A DNA stretch of 7,345 nt from a virus, in IMG/VR virus record IMGVR_UViG_3300003327_000002; one strand, written 5' to 3'. The notes under the pieces were generated by a model. The model ran no database searches and had not been told where the DNA came from. It worked only from the letters and a program-made list of their open reading frames with translations. The translations under genes and the position numbers were made by a program. Of this stretch, positions 60 through 7,345 are shown in pieces. Position 1 is the stretch's first letter. Each line of letters starts with the position of its first letter.

Positions 60-191
60 GCCCTACCCCTACCCCCCGCACCCCGAAGACCCGCCCCGGC
101 CGGGGGGGAGAGCCGGGGGCGGGATGACCAAGGCCATTGGTCACAAGGCACTGTATAAAGGGCTTGGTCACCTCAGTCAAGGGGCTTGGTC
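60..191. promoter_or_regulatory. Divergent control region between the minus-strand morphogenesis/replication operon and the plus-strand repressor gene (second copy at 7151-7282)
   Basis: This 132-bp stretch is non-coding. The minus-strand promoter is TTGACT (plus 180-175), a 17-nt spacer, then TATACA (157-152). The plus-strand -10-like TATAAA lies at 154-159 with TG at 152-153, and it overlaps the minus -10. The SD AAGGGG at 179-184 sits 7 nt before the ATG at 192. Confidence 0.55.
90..123. other. GC-rich stem-loop: CCCGCCCCGG / CCGGGGGCGGG arms with one bulge, containing the perfect 12-nt palindrome CCCCGGCCGGGG at 94-105. Candidate ssDNA origin, packaging signal or leader structure.
   Basis: Arms 90-99 and 113-123 are complementary apart from one extra G. 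The C-tract array at 61-101 lies next to it, and these become G-tracts on the coding/packaged minus strand. Confidence 0.4.
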
Positions 192-192
192 A
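125..192. promoter_or_regulatory. Operator-like array: four copies of the half-site TTGGTCA
   Basis: TGACCAA (125-131) and TTGGTCA (137-143) form an inverted repeat with a 5-nt spacer. Direct copies of GGGCTTGGTCA lie at 160-170 and 182-192, 22 bp apart. The last copy overlaps the repressor ATG, and the middle copy lies in the spacer of the minus-strand promoter. Confidence 0.5.
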
Positions 193-671
193 TGGAAATC
201 GGAGAAATCATCGACCGCGCGAAAGCAGCAATCGGAGCCGAGAGCGACAGCGCGCTATCCCGCCACCTCGGACTCAGCCGAACCGCGGTAGGCAACTGGC
301 GGTCAGGCGTCAGCCTGCCGGACCCGGTTTCCTGCGAGCGCCTGGCAGGACTGACCGGAATCCCGCTGGCACGGGTGCTGGGAATCGTAGGAGAAGCCCG
401 CGCTCACTCGCGCGAGGAAAAGGCCGTATGGCGCAAGCTGGCGGCCTCCGCCACCCTCCTAGCGCTGGTGGTGCTGGGAAACGCGCAGGAAGGCGTCTAT
501 GCGGCCACACAGCCGTCAATCGACGCGGCCAAGATGTATATTATGCGAAATCGCGGGGGCCTCGATAAAGGACTGCGCTACCTCGGCCGAATCCTGCGGG
601 ACTGGCTCGGCTTCGCCCTAGGACGCGCCCGCAAGCCAGAAGGAAGCATCGAGGTCTTCACATGGATTTGA
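192..671 (+). CDS. XRE/Cro-cI-type helix-turn-helix repressor (putative phage immunity/lysogeny regulator), 159 aa
   Basis: The HTH signature SALSRHLGLSRTAVGNWRSG spans about nt 246-308. The gene is divergent from the structural operon, as filamentous-phage repressors are. I chose the ATG at 192 with SD AAGGGG over the TTG at 186. Codons are GC3-rich except at the embedded dif-like site. Confidence 0.85.
   Translation: MEIGEIIDRAKAAIGAESDSALSRHLGLSRTAVGNWRSGVSLPDPVSCERLAGLTGIPLARVLGIVGEARAHSREEKAVWRKLAASATLLALVVLGNAQEGVYAATQPSIDAAKMYIMRNRGGLDKGLRYLGRILRDWLGFALGRARKPEGSIEVFTWI
524..551. other. dif-like XerC/XerD recombination site (candidate attP) inside the repressor CDS: CGCGGCCAAGA-TGTATA-TTATGCGAAAT
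   Basis: On the minus strand it reads ATTTCGCATAA-TATACA-TCTTGGCCGCG. From memory, ATTTCGCATAA is the XerC arm of Xanthomonas dif, and E. coli dif is GGTGCGCATAA-TGTATA-TTATGTTAAAT. This is an AT-rich island in a GC-rich gene: the codons tat att atg cga aat break the GC3 bias. Confidence 0.55.
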
Positions 672-985
672 CCGACTACAACAACAGAACGCCATGTTGG
701 CCAATGGGCCAGCCATGCCCGAACAAGTGCGCTGCGCAAGTGCGCGATTTGATAACGCGGAACCATGTGCACTTGCACGGCCCGTGGGCCGGCTGGCGAC
801 TCGCCGGCCGCGACTTGGTCAGCCCGGACGGCATCAGATTCAGCCCCGAGCGACTCCGAGGGCTGGCATGGCGGCAAGAAGCAGAAACCCGCTTGGCCCA
901 CATCCGGGCCAAGCACAAGCAGCAAGAACCGCTCGTCACCGTGATCCGCGTCCGCAAGAACGAAATCGGCCCCCTAGCAGGCTAG
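662..985 (+). CDS. Small phage protein, probably DUF3653 family (XafT-like Xer recombination activation factor candidate), 107 aa
   Basis: The ATG at 662 overlaps the repressor stop (ATGGATTTGA), with SD GAGG at 651-654. GC3 bias is strong. The motif GPWAGWRLAGRDLVSPDGIRFSPERLRGL and the size match my recollection of DUF3653 proteins of IMEX-type phages. Confidence 0.7.
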   Translation: MDLTDYNNRTPCWPMGQPCPNKCAAQVRDLITRNHVHLHGPWAGWRLAGRDLVSPDGIRFSPERLRGLAWRQEAETRLAHIRAKHKQQEPLVTVIRVRKNEIGPLAG

Positions 986-1221: not shown

Positions 1222-1611
1222 ATGGATCGAGAGCGACCGCCCTACCTGGGCGACCTACCGCGCGACCGACGCGGCAACTGGCCGATGTACCTGCTGGCCG
1301 TCAGCCTACTGGCCGCACTGATCGGCGCTTGGAAGGTCTACACGGGCACCGTGGTGGCATGGCATGAGCGCTTCCAGGCTCCGAAGCCCACCGCCACAGC
1401 GCCAGCACCGCCAAGCCCCGCCAAGCTGGAACGACGCCGCGCAGCACGGCAAGAGGCGCTTGTCGCAGAGGCTGCGCGCCAGATCATGCAGCAGGCCGAG
1501 AAACAGGACCGGTCAGGCTGGAAATGCATCGACGGCACGCCGTTCCGGCCTGTTCCAGGTGGCGGCTGGGAGAACGTGCCAGGCGAGAGATGCGCTACGT
1601 CGAGGCAATAG
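1222..1611 (+). CDS. Membrane-anchored protein of unknown function, 129 aa: Arg-rich N-terminus, one TM helix, Pro-rich linker, charged helix, and a C-terminal two-Cys domain
   Basis: SD AAGGGGGA lies 5 nt before the ATG at 1222. Codon usage is GC3-rich. The TM segment is YLLAVSLLAALIGAWKVY. The C-terminal sequence is GWKCIDGTPFRPVPGGGWENVPGERC. I recognise no family. Confidence 0.7.
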   Translation: MDRERPPYLGDLPRDRRGNWPMYLLAVSLLAALIGAWKVYTGTVVAWHERFQAPKPTATAPAPPSPAKLERRRAARQEALVAEAARQIMQQAEKQDRSGWKCIDGTPFRPVPGGGWENVPGERCATSRQ

Positions 1612-2230
1612 CAGACAACAAGACGAGATGAGCAACGTAATACCCGAGGAAAACCCATCGAACGCGCGGCAAGCGCACATCCAGACGCCCGAGCGCCCAC
1701 AGCACCGGCACCGATAACAACGCCCAGACGTTGCCGTTGTAGAGGCACAAAGCGCTGTATGCAACACCCAGTGCTAAGGCAGCGACGAAGTGACCCGTCC
1801 ACGTTCTGGCGCGGAACCAAAGACACGCAGAGAACATCAGCGCCGGGCCGGTCCACTGGTAATCAACGAACAGGCCAAGGACCGCCCACACTACGAGCGC
1901 AGCCCATGCACTCCGCGCAGTGCAAACGTACAGCCCGAGCGCCAACGAGAACAACACGTTCACCGGCAGCCAGTACCCGAACGCAAGAGCATGGAACGGC
2001 TGAACGACCGCCCCAGCCACCAACAGGCGGCGAATCGCCCGGCCAGACGTTCCAGGACGCGTGTCTACCGCAGCGTTGTAAGCCAGCACGACGGCAAATA
2101 CCGGAAACGCGACGCGCCCCAATTCCGACAGCCACTGAAACGAGCCAGCGAACAAGGCTTTGTTCACGTGGTCGCCGGTCATCAAAACAAGCGCAAGCCA
2201 CTTCAACAGCTCACGGCCACCAGAAGTCAT
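1595..2230 (-). CDS. traX: TraX-family integral-membrane acyltransferase (F-pilin N-acetylase family), 211 aa
   Basis: Three blocks align with my memory of F-plasmid TraX. LKWLALVLMTGDHVN matches IKTVALVLMVLDHSN. GRVAFPVFAVVLAYN matches GRGAFPLFALVWGLN. LPRVRWVFLGYYVAHLVLLSAIA matches LPRFWPGDFFPTFYACHLAVLGVLAL. The protein is polytopic and hydrophobic throughout. Its start overlaps the zot stop (ATGA at 2230-2227). Confidence 0.85.
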   Translation of the reverse strand: MTSGGRELLKWLALVLMTGDHVNKALFAGSFQWLSELGRVAFPVFAVVLAYNAAVDTRPGTSGRAIRRLLVAGAVVQPFHALAFGYWLPVNVLFSLALGLYVCTARSAWAALVVWAVLGLFVDYQWTGPALMFSACLWFRARTWTGHFVAALALGVAYSALCLYNGNVWALLSVPVLWALGRLDVRLPRVRWVFLGYYVAHLVLLSAIAST

Positions 2231-3357
2231 TGCACAAGCCCCGCACCATCAATCACAACTCCCGCGCTCGTAGACGCAGGCACGGCCTGTGACACCTGCG
2301 CAACCTGATGCACCTGCTCGCGCTCACGCTGACGCTCACGGTATGGGTTGTAGGGCGCACCGTAACGCGCAACCGTGCGACACTCGGGCTGGCTCAACTC
2401 GTACAGCGTGCCCTGTTCTGTGAAGCACGTACACGACGGCTCGCGGTAGCTGCCATCCGCCACGGTACCGCCCAAACTGGACATGCAATACAACTGCGGA
2501 TCGGCAGTAACGCGCCGATCATCGAACACCGGAGCAGTCCAGGGCATAGTGGCAAACCGCGGCAAGTGTGCAGTCGCATAATCCGAGAGACTGGCCCAAA
2601 CCCCGCGCCCGCCGCCGCCCTGCTCAACAGGAACGGCAGCATGCGGCGGCGCGGCTGACGCCGCGCTCGCCGCCTCTTCCGAAACACTGCCAGCTACAGC
2701 ATCCGGACGCAGGAAGCTAAACGCAATCCACCCAGATACCACGGCTCCGACAATCACCGCAGGAATTGCCAGAACCTTAAGCGGAAGCCGCGGCTTGATC
2801 GTGTGAACTTCCGCGGACTTGTAAGAGCCAAACACATGCGAAGGCAACAGCCGCGTGGTCCGCTGAGCCAGCTCACGCTTCGCGGTGGACTTGATTTCTT
2901 CGTTCAACTCGCCCCACGTGAACACGTCAACCATATGTGTGCCAAACCGGCGCACAACGTGATGATGCGTTCCGATAAGACCCCGCACAAACGGATACAG
3001 CTGATTAGGCTGCTGAGTCGTCCACACGAAGTCCAGGCCCCTGTGCCGATGCTCCGCCAGGTCGAGAACATGCTTAGGCGTAGCTTGCCTGGTCGCATCG
3101 TGAAGATGACCAAACCATTTCCAGGCCTCATCCACGAAGATCAGCGAACCGTCAGGGACAATGTACTGTCCTGTATGAGGATCACGGCGGTTCCAATCCC
3201 GCGCATCGTCCAACGGCGTAGCCAAACCCGGCTGCAACCCATCGATTCCAACCGCGAAAATCGGACGTTCAGCTTTCTTGGCCTCTTCAATGAGACGCTC
3301 GACCATGAGCGCCGTCTTACCGTTGCCCGGCTGACCAGTGAACAATTCGATTGGCAT
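2227..3357 (-). CDS. zot: Zot-family / pI-like phage assembly ATPase, 376 aa
   Basis: Walker A GQPGNGKT (nt 3313-3336) and Walker B LIFVDEAW are present, followed by one TM helix (LAIPAVIVGAVVSGWIAFSFL) and a C-terminal periplasmic domain. I chose the start at 3357 (MPIELF...) because it lies 1 nt after the pVI-like stop (TGAAATG) and has a GGGGG SD. I rejected the upstream ATG at 3402. Confidence 0.95.
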   Translation of the reverse strand: MPIELFTGQPGNGKTALMVERLIEEAKKAERPIFAVGIDGLQPGLATPLDDARDWNRRDPHTGQYIVPDGSLIFVDEAWKWFGHLHDATRQATPKHVLDLAEHRHRGLDFVWTTQQPNQLYPFVRGLIGTHHHVVRRFGTHMVDVFTWGELNEEIKSTAKRELAQRTTRLLPSHVFGSYKSAEVHTIKPRLPLKVLAIPAVIVGAVVSGWIAFSFLRPDAVAGSVSEEAASAASAAPPHAAVPVEQGGGGRGVWASLSDYATAHLPRFATMPWTAPVFDDRRVTADPQLYCMSSLGGTVADGSYREPSCTCFTEQGTLYELSQPECRTVARYGAPYNPYRERQREREQVHQVAQVSQAVPASTSAGVVIDGAGLVQ

Positions 3358-3358
3358 T

Positions 3359-3691
3359 TCAAGCCCCCGATGCCGCCTTCCGGAAGAACACCCGGCCAGC
3401 ATTCATTGCGTGTCTGGCCGCCACAGCGGAGATGATCATAGTTAATGCCTTGTCGAAATTGAGAAGGCCCATCCATTGAAGAGCAACAGCAGCATACTCA
3501 CCGCCACCCATGCCCGAAGTTGCCAAACTTTCGAGGTGCTCAATGAACGGCTCGACGCCAAACTTATAGCTCGCCAGTGAAACACCAAACCAGGACAAAA
3601 CAGCCGTGAGCATCTGGCCGATGCGATTCTTGAACAGCCAGAGGACAGCAGACGTGATGCCAGAAATAATCCAGCCGAGAATCGCAGGCAT
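3359..3691 (-). CDS. pVI-like minor coat protein, 110 aa
   Basis: It sits between the adsorption protein and zot. It is a small hydrophobic protein with membrane segments (ILGWIISGITSAVLWLF, MLTAVLSWFGVSLA). Its start overlaps the upstream stop (TAATG at 3693-3689). Confidence 0.75.
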   Translation of the reverse strand: MPAILGWIISGITSAVLWLFKNRIGQMLTAVLSWFGVSLASYKFGVEPFIEHLESLATSGMGGGEYAAVALQWMGLLNFDKALTMIISAVAARHAMNAGRVFFRKAASGA

Positions 3692-5061
3692 TATGCAGTC
3701 CCCCCGCTAACGATCCGCAACGACACCAGTCCGGCCAGGATCAACACGATAGAACCGGCAAGACTCACCCATTGACACAACGGCGCAAGATCGAAATTAA
3801 CCACCACGCCGTTTGGCAACGTCACACTCGGCGGCGTTGGACACGTCCGCGAATAGCCGTAACCGCTCGAATCAGGCTCAGGGATATCAACTTCATCATC
3901 GCCGGGGCCAGCATCAGTCAGCGTATCGCCGCCAACAACGTTGGGATCATGCGTACCCGGACCGCCCAAGAAGTCGATCACGTCCGAATTGTCACCATCG
4001 CCGCCGCCACCACCGCCCGCCGCCATCTTTTCCAGCGAACACGCTGCCTTCCACTGTTGCACCAGCATCGAATACTCGAGCGCGTCACACTTCTCACCAT
4101 CGCATACCGGCATAGCTCCACACGTACCGCCACTTATGCTGCGGTTCTTGCGAGTATTGCAATCAATGCGCCATTGAATCCGCGCTTGTCCGCACAAGAT
4201 CGGACTACCGCTGCACTGTGGCGGAGTGCTGCAATCATCGCCGCCGGAAAAAAACTCTTCGTCGGCGTCGTCTTCGTTGCCATCGCCGTCATCATCGCGC
4301 TTGCACGTGCCATCCGGGCCGCGCACCTGACCGGCGGGACACTCGTTATCAACACAGCTACCATCCGGACCGCGAACTTGACCGGCTGGACATTCGTTCT
4401 CGCGCTTGCGACACGTGCCATCCGGACCCAGAACTTTACCCGCAGGGCAAGGCTCCGGAGCGCACTGGCCCAAACTGTTACGCGACTGGCCAGCAGGACA
4501 AAGCGGCTCGTCAGGCTCACACACATTCAACACGGGATTCCAAGTGTGACCGGACGCAACACACGATTCCGGAAAATTACGGCCATCACACGCGCTGGAC
4601 TGATCGAAACTAGCAGTGCTGGTGCCATCTGCATTCTGATAAAAATGCACGGTGCAACCACCGTTGCAGCCATACGAACCAGAACGAGGCAAAAACTCAG
4701 TCACAAAATCATCGCGCGCCTGGCAACTGCTCCTAAAAAAATAAGTGCCGTAATACGTCTGAGAGCCAGCATAAGCCGTAGAACAATCCCAAGCTCGATG
4801 AATGATGGTATAGCGCGGCTGATAGCGGTCAGGCAGCGTCTTAAAACACCCGTCAAACGACCGAACATAACCAGTGATCTCTTTACCATCGCCGGGCGAA
4901 TGCTCAGCCATGCAGCGTGAGTACGCCTCGCCCTCGTCCTCATACATGCCACCGCTAGGCGGGCTGAATGAAGGAGCCTGGCACGATTGAGCAAATGCGC
5001 TCCCCGCCGCGACGAACAGCGAAAAAAAACACAAAACCCGCGCGAAGAGCACACGAACCAT
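3691..5061 (-). CDS. pIII-like adsorption/minor coat protein, 456 aa
   Basis: It has a signal peptide MVRVLFARVLCFFSLFVAAGSAFA/QS. The start at 5061 has a GGGGG SD 7 nt upstream, and I rejected 5118. Downstream come a Cys-rich N-terminal domain, four Cys-bounded repeats, an acidic stretch, a Gly run (GGGGGGDGD) and a C-terminal membrane anchor WVSLAGSIVLILAGLVSL. It lies immediately after the major coat gene. Confidence 0.8.
   Translation of the reverse strand: MVRVLFARVLCFFSLFVAAGSAFAQSCQAPSFSPPSGGMYEDEGEAYSRCMAEHSPGDGKEITGYVRSFDGCFKTLPDRYQPRYTIIHRAWDCSTAYAGSQTYYGTYFFRSSCQARDDFVTEFLPRSGSYGCNGGCTVHFYQNADGTSTASFDQSSACDGRNFPESCVASGHTWNPVLNVCEPDEPLCPAGQSRNSLGQCAPEPCPAGKVLGPDGTCRKRENECPAGQVRGPDGSCVDNECPAGQVRGPDGTCKRDDDGDGNEDDADEEFFSGGDDCSTPPQCSGSPILCGQARIQWRIDCNTRKNRSISGGTCGAMPVCDGEKCDALEYSMLVQQWKAACSLEKMAAGGGGGGDGDNSDVIDFLGGPGTHDPNVVGGDTLTDAGPGDDEVDIPEPDSSGYGYSRTCPTPPSVTLPNGVVVNFDLAPLCQWVSLAGSIVLILAGLVSLRIVSGGTA
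4303..4500 (-). repeat. Imperfect tandem coding repeats encoding four Cys-bounded 13-residue loops
   Basis: The peptides are CPAGQSRNSLGQC, CPAGKVLGPDGTC, CPAGQVRGPDGSC and CPAGQVRGPDGTC, at ORF-track residues 207-272 of the 475-aa ORF. The matching nucleotide repeats (ccatccgg[gr]cc...accggc) are visible on the plus strand. Confidence 0.8.
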
Positions 5062-5143
5062 CAATCGCCCCCGAAAACGATATAAAGCGCAACGAGCCAA
5101 GCGCAAAGCCAGATCCAACCTTCCATGAAATCATCCCCAGAGG

Positions 5144-5188: not shown

Positions 5189-5410
5189 TCACATCGCGCG
5201 ACGCACCCACTTGTAGACCTTGATACCCACGAGGACCAGAAGCACCGCGGAACCGATGGCCGCAATCGGAGCCGCGGCACCCTCAATGGCGCTCACGACG
5301 CCGGACACATCGACACCACCGCCACCGCTGGCGAACGCGGCCGGAGCGACCAGAACCAGCGACGCGGCCGGAGCCATGGCGTACAGCTTGCCCTTGAACT
5401 TCTTCAGCAT
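5189..5410 (-). CDS. Major coat protein (pVIII-like, class II Xf/Pf1 type), 73-aa precursor
   Basis: The signal peptide is MLKKFKGKLYAMAPAASLVLVAPAAFA, followed by the mature sequence SGGGGVDVSGVVSAIEGAAAPIAAIGSAVLLVLVGIKVYKWVRRAM. That sequence has an acidic N-terminus, a hydrophobic core and a basic C-terminus, and it is nearly identical to my recollection of the Xf coat protein. A strong SD GAGGAGA lies upstream. Confidence 0.95.
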   Translation of the reverse strand: MLKKFKGKLYAMAPAASLVLVAPAAFASGGGGVDVSGVVSAIEGAAAPIAAIGSAVLLVLVGIKVYKWVRRAM

Positions 5411-5422
5411 TGCTTTTTCTCC

Positions 5423-5626
5423 TCACGATTGATCAACGAACTTCCGAATCCGGCGAAAAACCCACGCGCTGCCCCAGAGCAACGCGCACGCCAGGCCAAT
5501 GGCCTGCGCTTCCTCGATGCTCAGCGCCGGAAGACTGGGCATCTGCGGAACCCAAATTTCCTGTGCGCACGTGCCCGTCGACGCATCAAAATCTCGATCA
5601 AGACAGCCTCGGACAACGTACGCCAT
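5423..5626 (-). CDS. Small coat-like membrane protein (pVII/pIX-position ORF), 67 aa
   Basis: It lies between the ssDNA-binding gene and the major coat gene. A C-terminal TM segment plus basic tail (AIGLACALLWGSAWVFRRIRKF) resembles a virion-cap or coat-type protein. It starts 3 nt after the upstream stop. Confidence 0.6.
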   Translation of the reverse strand: MAYVVRGCLDRDFDASTGTCAQEIWVPQMPSLPALSIEEAQAIGLACALLWGSAWVFRRIRKFVDQS

Positions 5627-5629
5627 GAC

Positions 5630-5917
5630 TCAGCCCTTCACCGCGTTGGCGGTCGAAGTCGGAATCGGAATCAAGTAGATGCGGCGGCCGACCCGCAGCG
5701 AGTCGAAATCGCCGACTTCCAACGAGGACACGTCGAGCAGATACTTGCCCGGCGGATACGGCGGCTGATCGTCGCCAAGATTGATAGTGAACGGCTTCGG
5801 GAAGTCCTCGCCAGTCTCAATGGCCGCCCGCTGTTCCTTGAAAACAACCTGCGTACCGTCCTTGCGCTTGATGACGCGCGGCGTGGCAGTGCCAGACTTG
5901 ATGATGATGCAGTTCAT
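5630..5917 (-). CDS. gV-like ssDNA-binding protein, 95 aa
   Basis: The assignment rests on position directly after Rep with an ATGA overlap (5917-5914), a GGAG SD 8 nt upstream, its size, and a beta-rich sequence ([29 protein letters not shown]...). I rejected the upstream starts at 5974 and 5938. Confidence 0.7.
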
Positions 5918-6747
5918 GCGATTAGCTCCAATTTCCATGCAAAAACCCGGCCCTGAATGAACGAAACCCGCCACGGCGAGGGCCAGAATTCGCCGGTGAG
6001 TTTGTCAACGTAGCCGCCGAGGGCTTTGCGAATATCGGCCAACGGACCGAGTGCGGCGCGCGCATCTTCCGGGGCTTTCCACCACCGCAGTTCGCGCCTG
6101 GACTCTTCATTGAGGCCGCCGACGCCATGAGTGCGAAAACCCTTCGGGAACGCCTCAGCCATCGCGCCGCAGAACTTGGAGGCGTACTTAGCGAGATACC
6201 CGACCGCATTACGGGCGCGCTCGATCTTAGTCATGCCGTGAGGCCACCAGCCGCGCGCGTCCGGCTTGCCCATCCAGTAGCCGCGCGGAATCCAGATCAG
6301 GAGGTGGTAGTGAGGCCGCAGGCGCTTTGTGAGTTCGCAGACCCACAAATAACGGAGGCGCGCACGCCCCAGCCCCTTTCGTCGGTTAAAGCGATCGAAG
6401 TGGCCCCGGACTCGCTTAACCAATTCGCTAACGTCACGAGGGCTTGCGTCACTTCCCTCTGCGTAGGTCGCAGTGAGCATGTACCACGCGCCACGCACTG
6501 AACCCTTCCGCGCTTCTTCGTCATGGAGCCTTGCTCCGGTGATGATGGACTTCCGCAGGCGCATGGCCCTGATGCGGTTCTTGTTGAGTTCAACCGACAC
6601 GCGGTGAAGATGGCGCGTGTCACTTGTTGAAGAATGGACAAGCCCAAGGCCGCCTGCGGCGGCCTTCGAAAAGCGGGCGGCGCAAAGCGACTCCGCAACC
6701 TCAGCGGTGCGATGCGCAGCAGCGGCAAGGAGGGAGGCACGATTCAT
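5914..6747 (-). CDS. HUH-superfamily rolling-circle replication initiation protein (gII-like), 277 aa
   Basis: Motif I-like is WYMLTATY. The HUH motif is PHYHLLIW (nt 6292-6315). The catalytic Tyr motif is [11 protein letters not shown] (nt 6172-6204). I chose the start at 6747 because of the ATGA overlap with the upstream ORF and the GAGGTG SD. Confidence 0.9.
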
Positions 6748-6956
6748 GCGCACACCTCGGAAAGCGCAGCGCGGCACGCCGCCTGTTCGGCCAGTTCATC
6801 CATAGCCGCCTCGCGGATGCCCTTCCAGATCTGCCGCTGCCGAGGAGTAAGACGAAGCGGGAATAGATCAGCACGCGCCGACGCGGCGGCCAGCATGCCG
6901 TCCGCGAGTTCGAGCGCCATGCGTGCGCCGCGTTCGGTGTCCGTGATGCGGCTCAT
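6744..6956 (-). CDS. Small hypothetical protein upstream of Rep, 70 aa
   Basis: The ATG at 6956 has SD GAGGAAGG and a TGATG overlap with the upstream ORF. Its stop overlaps the Rep start. It is GC3-rich. I recognise no family. Confidence 0.6.
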
Positions 6957-7150
6957 CAAACCTTCCTCAACTCGCGGCATCGGGCAGCGCGCACCTCGCG
7001 CTCAGCGTTCCAGACCAGCGCAGCGGCGCGGTAGCTCGCATCCAGACGATGAAAGCGGCGAAGACGGACGAAGCGGACGACCCCGGCGATACCGCCGACA
7101 ACCAACGCAGCAGCGATGGTCAGGAGGACGACTGCAAGAAGCTGGCCCAT
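6956..7150 (-). CDS. Small membrane protein, first gene of the minus-strand operon, 64 aa
   Basis: An N-terminal TM helix (LLAVVLLTIAAALVVGGIAGVV) is followed by a basic stretch (RFVRLRRFHR). Codons are GC3-rich. It is coupled to the next ORF. I recognise no family. Confidence 0.55.
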   Translation of the reverse strand: MGQLLAVVLLTIAAALVVGGIAGVVRFVRLRRFHRLDASYRAAALVWNAEREVRAARCRELRKV

Positions 7151-7282
7151 GCCCTACCCCTACCCCCCGCACCCCGAAGACCCGCCCCGGCCGGGGGGGA
7201 GAGCCGGGGGCGGGATGACCAAGGCCATTGGTCACAAGGCACTGTATAAAGGGCTTGGTCACCTCAGTCAAGGGGCTTGGTC
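7151..7282. promoter_or_regulatory. Second copy of the divergent control region; this copy is physically upstream of the operon start at 7150
   Basis: It is identical to 60-191. The operator half-sites lie at 7216-7222, 7228-7234, 7254-7261 and 7276-7283. The GC hairpin lies at 7181-7214. Confidence 0.55.
7243..7271 (-). promoter_or_regulatory. Sigma-70-type promoter for the replication/morphogenesis operon
   Basis: Reading the minus strand gives TTGACT (7271-7266), a 17-nt spacer, then TATACA (7248-7243). This predicts a leader of about 85 nt containing the GC hairpin and G-tracts before the ATG at 7150. Confidence 0.5.
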
Positions 7283-7345
7283 ATGGAAATCGGAGAAATC
7301 ATCGACCGCGCGAAAGCAGCAATCGGAGCCGAGAGCGACAGCGCG
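7283..7345 (+). CDS. Duplicate 5' fragment of the HTH repressor gene (same as 192-254), truncated by the window end
   Basis: The sequence is identical to that of the first copy. Confidence 0.6.
   Translation, partial: MEIGEIIDRAKAAIGAESDSA

Follow-up and report, generated by a model that had tools for sequence, protein, structure and literature searches.

A TraX-family membrane protein encoded behind zot in filamentous phages may N-acylate the major coat protein

The filamentous phage genome in IMG/VR record IMGVR_UViG_3300003327_000002 (the window, 7,345 nucleotides (nt), analysed at its full length) carries at the end of its morphogenesis operon a gene, traX, for a 211-amino-acid (aa) membrane protein of the TraX/TrbP family. 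Comparison of this gene and its neighbors with related phages points to the phage's own major coat protein as the substrate: fixed in the assembly operon, this inner-membrane enzyme would N-acylate the coat, a reading to which a probability of about 0.55 is assigned. The evidence that carries it is a covariation between TraX and the N-terminus of the mature coat protein. The features on which the argument turns are the following.

1595-2230, minus strand: gene of the TraX/TrbP-family polytopic inner-membrane acyltransferase, 211 aa, last of the morphogenesis operon (PF05857, PHROG 5529)
2227-2230, minus strand: overlap ATGA of the traX start and the zot stop (read from the sequence)
2159-2179, minus strand: helix-1 motif T-G-D-H-V-N-K (Asp20-His21, Lys24), the putative catalytic center (conserved residues)
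2227-3357, minus strand: zot/pI assembly ATPase, 376 aa from MPIELF... (PF05707, E=6e-16; PHROG 197, E=2e-88)
5189-5410, minus strand: major coat protein, 73 aa precursor, the proposed substrate (PF05356, E=3.4e-18)
5315-5329, minus strand: codons for Ser-Gly-Gly-Gly-Gly, with which the mature coat is predicted to start once signal peptidase has cut behind A-F-A

The coat precursor of the window reads ...AFA/SGGGG..., and the same cleavage is given by the signal-peptide annotation in the record of phage Xf109, whose major coat protein is 72% identical. The coats of XacF1 and Cf1c have an unrelated body, yet they too start SGGGG. Among phages without TraX, the PSH1 coat starts GDLATA, and the SHP2 and phiLf groups have leaderless coats.

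This relation was scored across loci gathered through TraX, five different coat bodies and one genome scan. Every zot locus with a complete coat gene and enough downstream sequence was included, and unique zot plus coat combinations were counted. The score was a predicted cleavage site A-x-A followed by [S/G/A/T]-G-[G/S/T], and all exceptions were inspected by eye. Earlier cleavage-site heuristics mis-called many sites and were dropped in favor of this A-x-A-anchored test. The motif is present in 140/143 loci with intact TraX, in 0/44 loci in which TraX is absent, and in 1/4 in which only a C-terminal TraX remnant is left. When each zot cluster is counted once, the association gives Fisher p=4e-7 with clusters at 70% identity and p=6e-4 at 50%. 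The original prediction, which had put forward the coat as a possible acylation target, thus gains comparative support; the covariation supports the idea but does not prove it.

The contrast between loci with and without TraX is repeated inside five coat-body types.

Xf-type coat: with TraX, SGGGG-VDV; without, A-VDV, AD-VDV or TTGG-VDV
Cf1c-type coat: with TraX, SGGGG-DFDG; without, A-DFDG, QSG-DFDG or ADGA-DFDG
L031-type coat: with TraX, SGGPAEAI; without, QAAGPGEAI
L051-type coat: with TraX, SGSGSPGAA; without, QTSSPGAA or TGAGSAI
SHP2-type coat: with TraX, leader plus SGGGG-IDAS (L157 only); without, leaderless

L157, a prophage of Pseudoxanthomonas sp. LjRoot168, is the sole TraX-positive phage of the SHP2 coat type, and its coat has both a signal peptide and SGGGG. 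In the IMG/VR prophage loci L271-L276, the TraX remnant after zot consists of the C-terminal ~70 residues; the Asp-His helix and the N-terminal two thirds are lost, and the coats read ADSASPG, not SGSGSPG. Several candidate exceptions dissolved on inspection. L271-L276 retain only this C-terminal remnant, a second prophage in L065 has a truncated zot, and twelve "leaderless" TraX-positive coats proved to be artefacts of open reading frame (ORF) extension or of contig edges.

The motif also bears on the chemistry. Position 1 of the coat can be S, G, A or T, so that the only constant nucleophile is the alpha-amine, and a constant alpha-amine fits N-acylation rather than O-acylation. F pilin is the one proven TraX substrate and is N-acetylated, and the processed N-termini of F pilin and of pVIII-type coats lie on the periplasmic face of the membrane. 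F pilin starts AGSSGQ (a sequence that matched traA at 100%), and other F-like pilins start AGGSQ, ASGGK or TTTATD. For F-like pilins, [SGAT]-G-[GST] was rejected as a strict rule on account of the Klebsiella-type TraA that starts TTTATD; the varied starts seem to reflect a family preference for small uncharged N-termini and not one strict motif. The adsorption protein pIII, also named earlier as a possible target, did not find support. Its predicted N-termini are heterogeneous, have no common motif and are unrelated to the presence of TraX, and that of the window's pIII (QSCQAP) is without the Gly-rich motif.

The proposed pathway would begin with insertion of the coat precursor into the inner membrane. 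Signal peptidase would then cut after A-x-A, so that a flexible and uncharged short tail ([S/G/A/T]-G-[G/S/T]..., here SGGGG) comes to lie at the N-terminus on the periplasmic side. The enzyme would draw an acyl group through the membrane and pass it to the free alpha-amino group of the coat; as in F, this group would most probably be acetyl, with acetyl-CoA as the donor. pI/Zot would then thread the modified subunits onto the DNA. Translational coupling to pI would put the enzyme at the assembly site. The catalytic activity, the acyl donor, the coat alpha-amine as acceptor and a benefit to the phage are what we infer here. Candidate benefits are: i) removal of the N-terminal positive charge; ii) shielding of the glycine tail from aminopeptidases; and iii) an altered virion surface or antigenicity.

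The family assignment, first made from sequence blocks shared with F TraX, holds in a profile hidden Markov model search. The protein matches Pfam TraX (PF05857) with E=3.7e-37 and 128.8 bits against a cut-off of 25, over protein residues 6-207 and profile positions 2-215 of 217, and PHROG 5529 ("transfer protein") with E=6.2e-62 over residues 1-210. The likeness to F TraX stands at the level of the family, but the nearest plasmid relative is IncP TrbP. The best non-phage matches are IncP-1 TrbP proteins (RP4, R751 and pBS228 type), 42-44% identical over the full length, whereas F TraX is only ~32-36% identical, and its BLAST alignment is confined to the N-terminal half (~36%). The NCBIfam TrbP subfamily model NF010454 is the best-scoring model, although its 200.6 bits fall just under the cut-off of 206; the F-type equivalogs TIGR02755 (45.8 bits versus 149.35) and NF010260 (37.5 bits versus 419) are missed. 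NF010454 scores the phage protein above genuine IncP-1 TrbP (150.1 bits), and the model was probably built largely from prophage copies.

Eleven positions (D20, H21, R39, N52, R68, N91, P188, R189, F194, Y198 and H201) are invariant in an alignment of phage copies, F TraX and two IncP TrbP proteins. All of them stay invariant or nearly so in an alignment of 63 homologues, in which D20 and H21 are invariant. For the related TmAT families, conserved His and Arg/Lys residues in helix 1 are regarded as a common hallmark (PMC12423673). The conservation suggests that Asp20-His21 form the catalytic center. The ratio of nonsynonymous to synonymous substitution (dN/dS) against close relatives is 0.12-0.26, which indicates that traX is maintained by purifying selection. 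An AlphaFold2 model built with the 63 homologues consists of helices throughout, ten segments in all, of which some are short (predicted local distance difference test score, pLDDT, 97; predicted template-modelling score, pTM, 0.92); in the literature TraX has nine transmembrane helices (PMC12423673). The positive-inside rule would place the enzyme's N-terminus in the cytoplasm, and the model would then put Asp20-His21 in the outer half of helix 1. Foldseek with this model found no significant match in PDB or BFVD, and a profile search of PDB sequences returned nothing relevant and no solved glycan acyltransferase; structure therefore gives no information on substrate or mechanism.

The position of the gene is as constant as its sequence family. 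The junction reads ...gtgcaATGActtctg..., where the traX ATG (2230-2228) overlaps the zot stop TGA (2229-2227), as the original prediction had noted. A synteny sample of 77 TraX instances (isolates plus 73 IMG/VR loci) has zot directly upstream of traX in 77/77, and in the three isolate genomes inspected (Xf109, SMA6 and Cf1c) zot immediately precedes it. The two genes overlap in 72/77: by 4 nt, (A/G)TGA, in 60 and by 1 nt, TGATG, in 12; the other five have small gaps or a broken zot. The order is kept while the identity of zot to that of the window ranges from 95% down to 30%. A promoter scan found no promoter-like site between zot and traX, and terminator-like sites around the pair are no more frequent than in shuffled sequence. 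The constant synteny, the overlaps and the lack of an internal promoter-like site together make traX an integral, co-translated end of the morphogenesis operon. This agrees with the operon membership claimed at the outset, and the survey downstream of zot in Xanthomonas and Stenotrophomonas inoviruses found the same zot-traX arrangement. The remark that traX occupies the slot of the pIV secretin of Ff phages is correct as gene order only; the protein has no similarity to a secretin. In SMA6 (L002, HG315669.1, 4842-5468), the deposited "trbP-related" coding sequence starts at 4890; the alignment points instead to the GTG at 4842 as start codon, in an overlap with the zot stop (GTGA) like that of other phages.

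traX is thus a fixed, translationally coupled terminal gene in an inovirus clade of Xanthomonas, Stenotrophomonas, Pseudoxanthomonas and relatives. In a species scan with one genome per species, zot-linked traX occurred only among copies more than ~45% identical, in Pseudoxanthomonas, Stenotrophomonas and one Lactobacillus contig; the filter, taken as it stood, did not count four more high-identity loci (one of them of Xanthomonas) as zot-linked. None of the 64 loci with an identity of 44% or below has zot upstream, and the plasmid ones inspected are IncP TrbP. Stenotrophomonas-type TraX was also seen in L168 (Lactobacillus laiwuensis contig36), L166 (Nocardiopsis yanglingensis) and L171 (a Rickettsia endosymbiont metagenome-assembled genome). 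The L168 copy is zot-linked and ~81% identical to that of SMA6; all three contigs are probably contamination.

Other roles for the enzyme have to be weighed against acylation of the coat. It might modify a host protein such as type IV pilin or another receptor filament, and so alter motility and virulence or exclude superinfection, an idea already proposed for XacF1 ORF9. The only characterised family member acts on pilin. The XacF1 paper (PMC4076744) associates its TraX-like ORF9 with a decrease of PilA and a loss of twitching in cells that are infected. We regard a host target as unlikely: it would leave unexplained why TraX tracks the phage coat N-terminus in five coat types and why traX is tied to pI and not placed among regulatory or moron genes. 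Mature type IV pilins, moreover, carry an N-methylated Phe and hence no free alpha-amine, so that the host pilin suggested in the original prediction is not supported as a target. Slightly less probable still is O-acylation of a glycan, be it lipopolysaccharide, a xanthan-type exopolysaccharide or peptidoglycan, with lysogenic conversion as the result. Prophage-encoded O-antigen acetylases are well known. In Pfam, TraX belongs to the Acyl_transf_3 (TmAT) clan, most members of which have carbohydrates as acceptors; it is, however, the borderline and most divergent member of that superfamily, a divergence ascribed to a protein substrate (PMC12423673). Neither structure search retrieved a solved glycan acyltransferase, and the covariation with the coat N-terminus would have no explanation.

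A non-catalytic, chaperone-like partner of pI that handles Gly-rich coat N-termini without acyl transfer would account for both the tight coupling to pI and the covariation with the coat. These phages are without recognisable pVII/pIX and pIV (bioRxiv 10.1101/2023.12.30.573655), so that their assembly may use other parts. Against such a partner, the Asp-His pair, several Arg residues and His201 are shared with F TraX and invariant in 63 homologues, a pattern typical of retained catalysis, and we rate it as improbable as a glycan target. That traX is a mere passenger, acquired from a P-type conjugative element and without function in the life cycle of the phage, is very improbable. Its closest non-phage relatives are indeed the IncP-1 TrbP proteins, but the gene is under purifying selection and is retained in genomes that measure only ~7 kb; zot lineages with just 30% identity have it in the same place with the same overlap, and its loss is accompanied by a change of the coat.

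Acylation of the coat itself has a number of points against it. Three loci with intact TraX do not fit the motif (SGASPG in two, GATSPG in one), and the coat cleavage sites are predictions. Sampling was seeded on TraX and on coat queries, one of them the pattern AFASGGGG; because of this seeding, on the other hand, it is informative that no SGGGG coat turned up without TraX. The literature on phage copies of TraX yielded no biochemistry. The closest relative, IncP TrbP, has no known function, and the pilin of its system is cyclised, not acetylated. In F, pilus assembly and transfer are unaffected when traX is lost, so that any phenotype of phage traX may be subtle. The Xf coat was reportedly protein-sequenced in 1978 as SGGGG...; if this was Edman sequencing of the intact protein, the N-terminus cannot be fully blocked.

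The novelty of the gene had been overestimated. A translated search of sequenced phages found traX homologues with 45-53% identity in XaF13, Xf409, Xf109, SMA6, XacF1 and Cf1c, and a weaker split match in fSU1 (37% identity, two pieces). The gene is already annotated as "conjugal transfer protein TrbP" in Xf109, "trbP-related" in SMA6, "transfer protein" in Cf1c and a TrbP/transfer type in Xf409, and the XaF13 genome announcement has a "TrbP conjugational protein". Prophage copies carry the NCBI name "TraX family protein", and the 2014 XacF1 paper had pointed to the homology with TraX and F-pilin acetylation (PMC4076744). A search of the literature on TrbP/TraX in filamentous phage, inovirus and prophage found annotation-level mentions only and no functional study. 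The traX of the window is therefore a gene type already annotated in this phage group; the coat covariation is new. In the phage collection, the XaF13 record (MN335248.1), from a Xanthomonas vesicatoria phage, bears the label "Vibrio phage XacF13".

The capsids of filamentous phages are taken to be unmodified protein, and structural models, phage display and thinking about virion charge are based on this. The wider proposition, to which we give roughly even odds, is that filamentous phages of one clade chemically modify their virions: an enzyme of the TraX type, derived from a conjugative element and joined to the assembly operon, would N-acylate every copy of the major coat protein, and the coat would have co-evolved a Ser/Gly-Gly-Gly acceptor tail. 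If true, an inovirus capsid would be seen for the first time to undergo enzymatic post-translational modification, and the TrbP-like branch would have its first assigned substrate. With thousands of N-acylated coat subunits per virion, surface chemistry, antigenicity and protease stability could change, and the virion might also behave differently in biofilms and in pathogens of plants and humans (Xanthomonas, Stenotrophomonas). The TraX/TrbP family would then have a second class of substrate, recognised by a simple rule, namely a small residue, Gly, and Gly/Ser/Thr directly after the signal-peptidase site. If the coat is unmodified, traX is an ordinary, already annotated accessory gene.

Positions 1-254 of the window are an exact copy of 7092-7345 (a 100% identical direct repeat, 7,091 nt apart). 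This 254-nt terminal redundancy indicates that the window is a complete circular inovirus genome of 7,091 nt with an assembly overlap. Metagenome contig L339 (10,999 nt) holds ~1.5 genome units in tandem. The phage is known from metagenomes only; the exact 211-aa protein occurs on ten metagenome contigs with identical gene order, relatives in IMG/VR are 86-92% identical, and the nearest isolate is at most 53% identical. The remaining genes are as follows.

5914-6777, minus strand: replication initiator (PF23343)
5630-5974, minus strand: single-stranded DNA-binding protein (PF02303)
5423-5626, minus strand: small membrane protein (ORF only)
3691-5118, minus strand: pIII-like adsorption protein (PHROG 4454, E=4e-118), between the coat and pVI genes
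3359-3691, minus strand: pVI-like minor coat protein (DUF2523; PF10734, E=2e-13)
186-671, plus strand: CI-type repressor
662-985, plus strand: DUF3653 protein
1222-1611, plus strand: 129-aa ORF

Gene callers on identical metagenome contigs give zot a length of 375-376 aa. The longest zot ORF (391 aa) reaches 3402, 45 nt upstream of the gene-caller start at 3357; a start at 3402 would overlap the pVI gene, and the start at 3357 comes right after the pVI stop. The longest ORF of the pIII-like gene is 475 aa, and gene callers give 456 aa. Within this gene, three imperfect 39-nt direct repeats lie at 4303-4449 with a spacing of 51-57 nt, and they encode Cys-Pro-Ala-Gly-...-Gly-Pro-Asp-Gly-(Ser/Thr)-Cys modules. 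The 129-aa ORF is convergent with traX, and the two share 17 nt (1595-1611) at the 3' end of traX. Neither Pfam nor PHROG gave it a significant match. Gene callers also predict it, and homologues with 30-99% identity lie on the opposite strand just past traX in many related loci.

The closest known counterparts of the window's protein are the TraX-like proteins of other inoviruses (Cf1c Cf1cp5, XacF1 ORF9, Xf109 ORF8, Xf409, SMA6 and XaF13 ORF8; PHROG 5529). They are alike in family, length (~210 aa), position after zot, overlapping stop and start, and type of coat N-terminus; none of them is more than 53% identical to it. IncP TrbP shares the invariant residues and the NCBIfam TrbP subfamily model. 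It has an extra ~25 aa at the N-terminus and is encoded not in a phage but at the end of the trb mating-pair-formation operon (trbJKLMNOP); no trb genes are present in the window. The AT3/TmAT acyltransferases, which include phage O-antigen acetylases, are polytopic proteins of the same Pfam clan and are thought to take acyl-CoA on the cytoplasmic side and to serve an acceptor that lies beyond the membrane (PMC12423673). TraX differs from them in having ~9 helices, without the broken ninth helix and the tenth helix, in a Lys in place of Arg in the helix-1 motif, and in a protein substrate instead of a glycan (PMC12423673). F TraX belongs to the same Pfam family as the window's protein and has the same helix-1 Asp-His. 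Its gene lies in the context traI-traX-finO of the F-type tra operon, whereas that of the window follows zot, and its substrate is a small, signal-peptidase-processed inner-membrane filament subunit with a small Gly/Ser-rich N-terminus.

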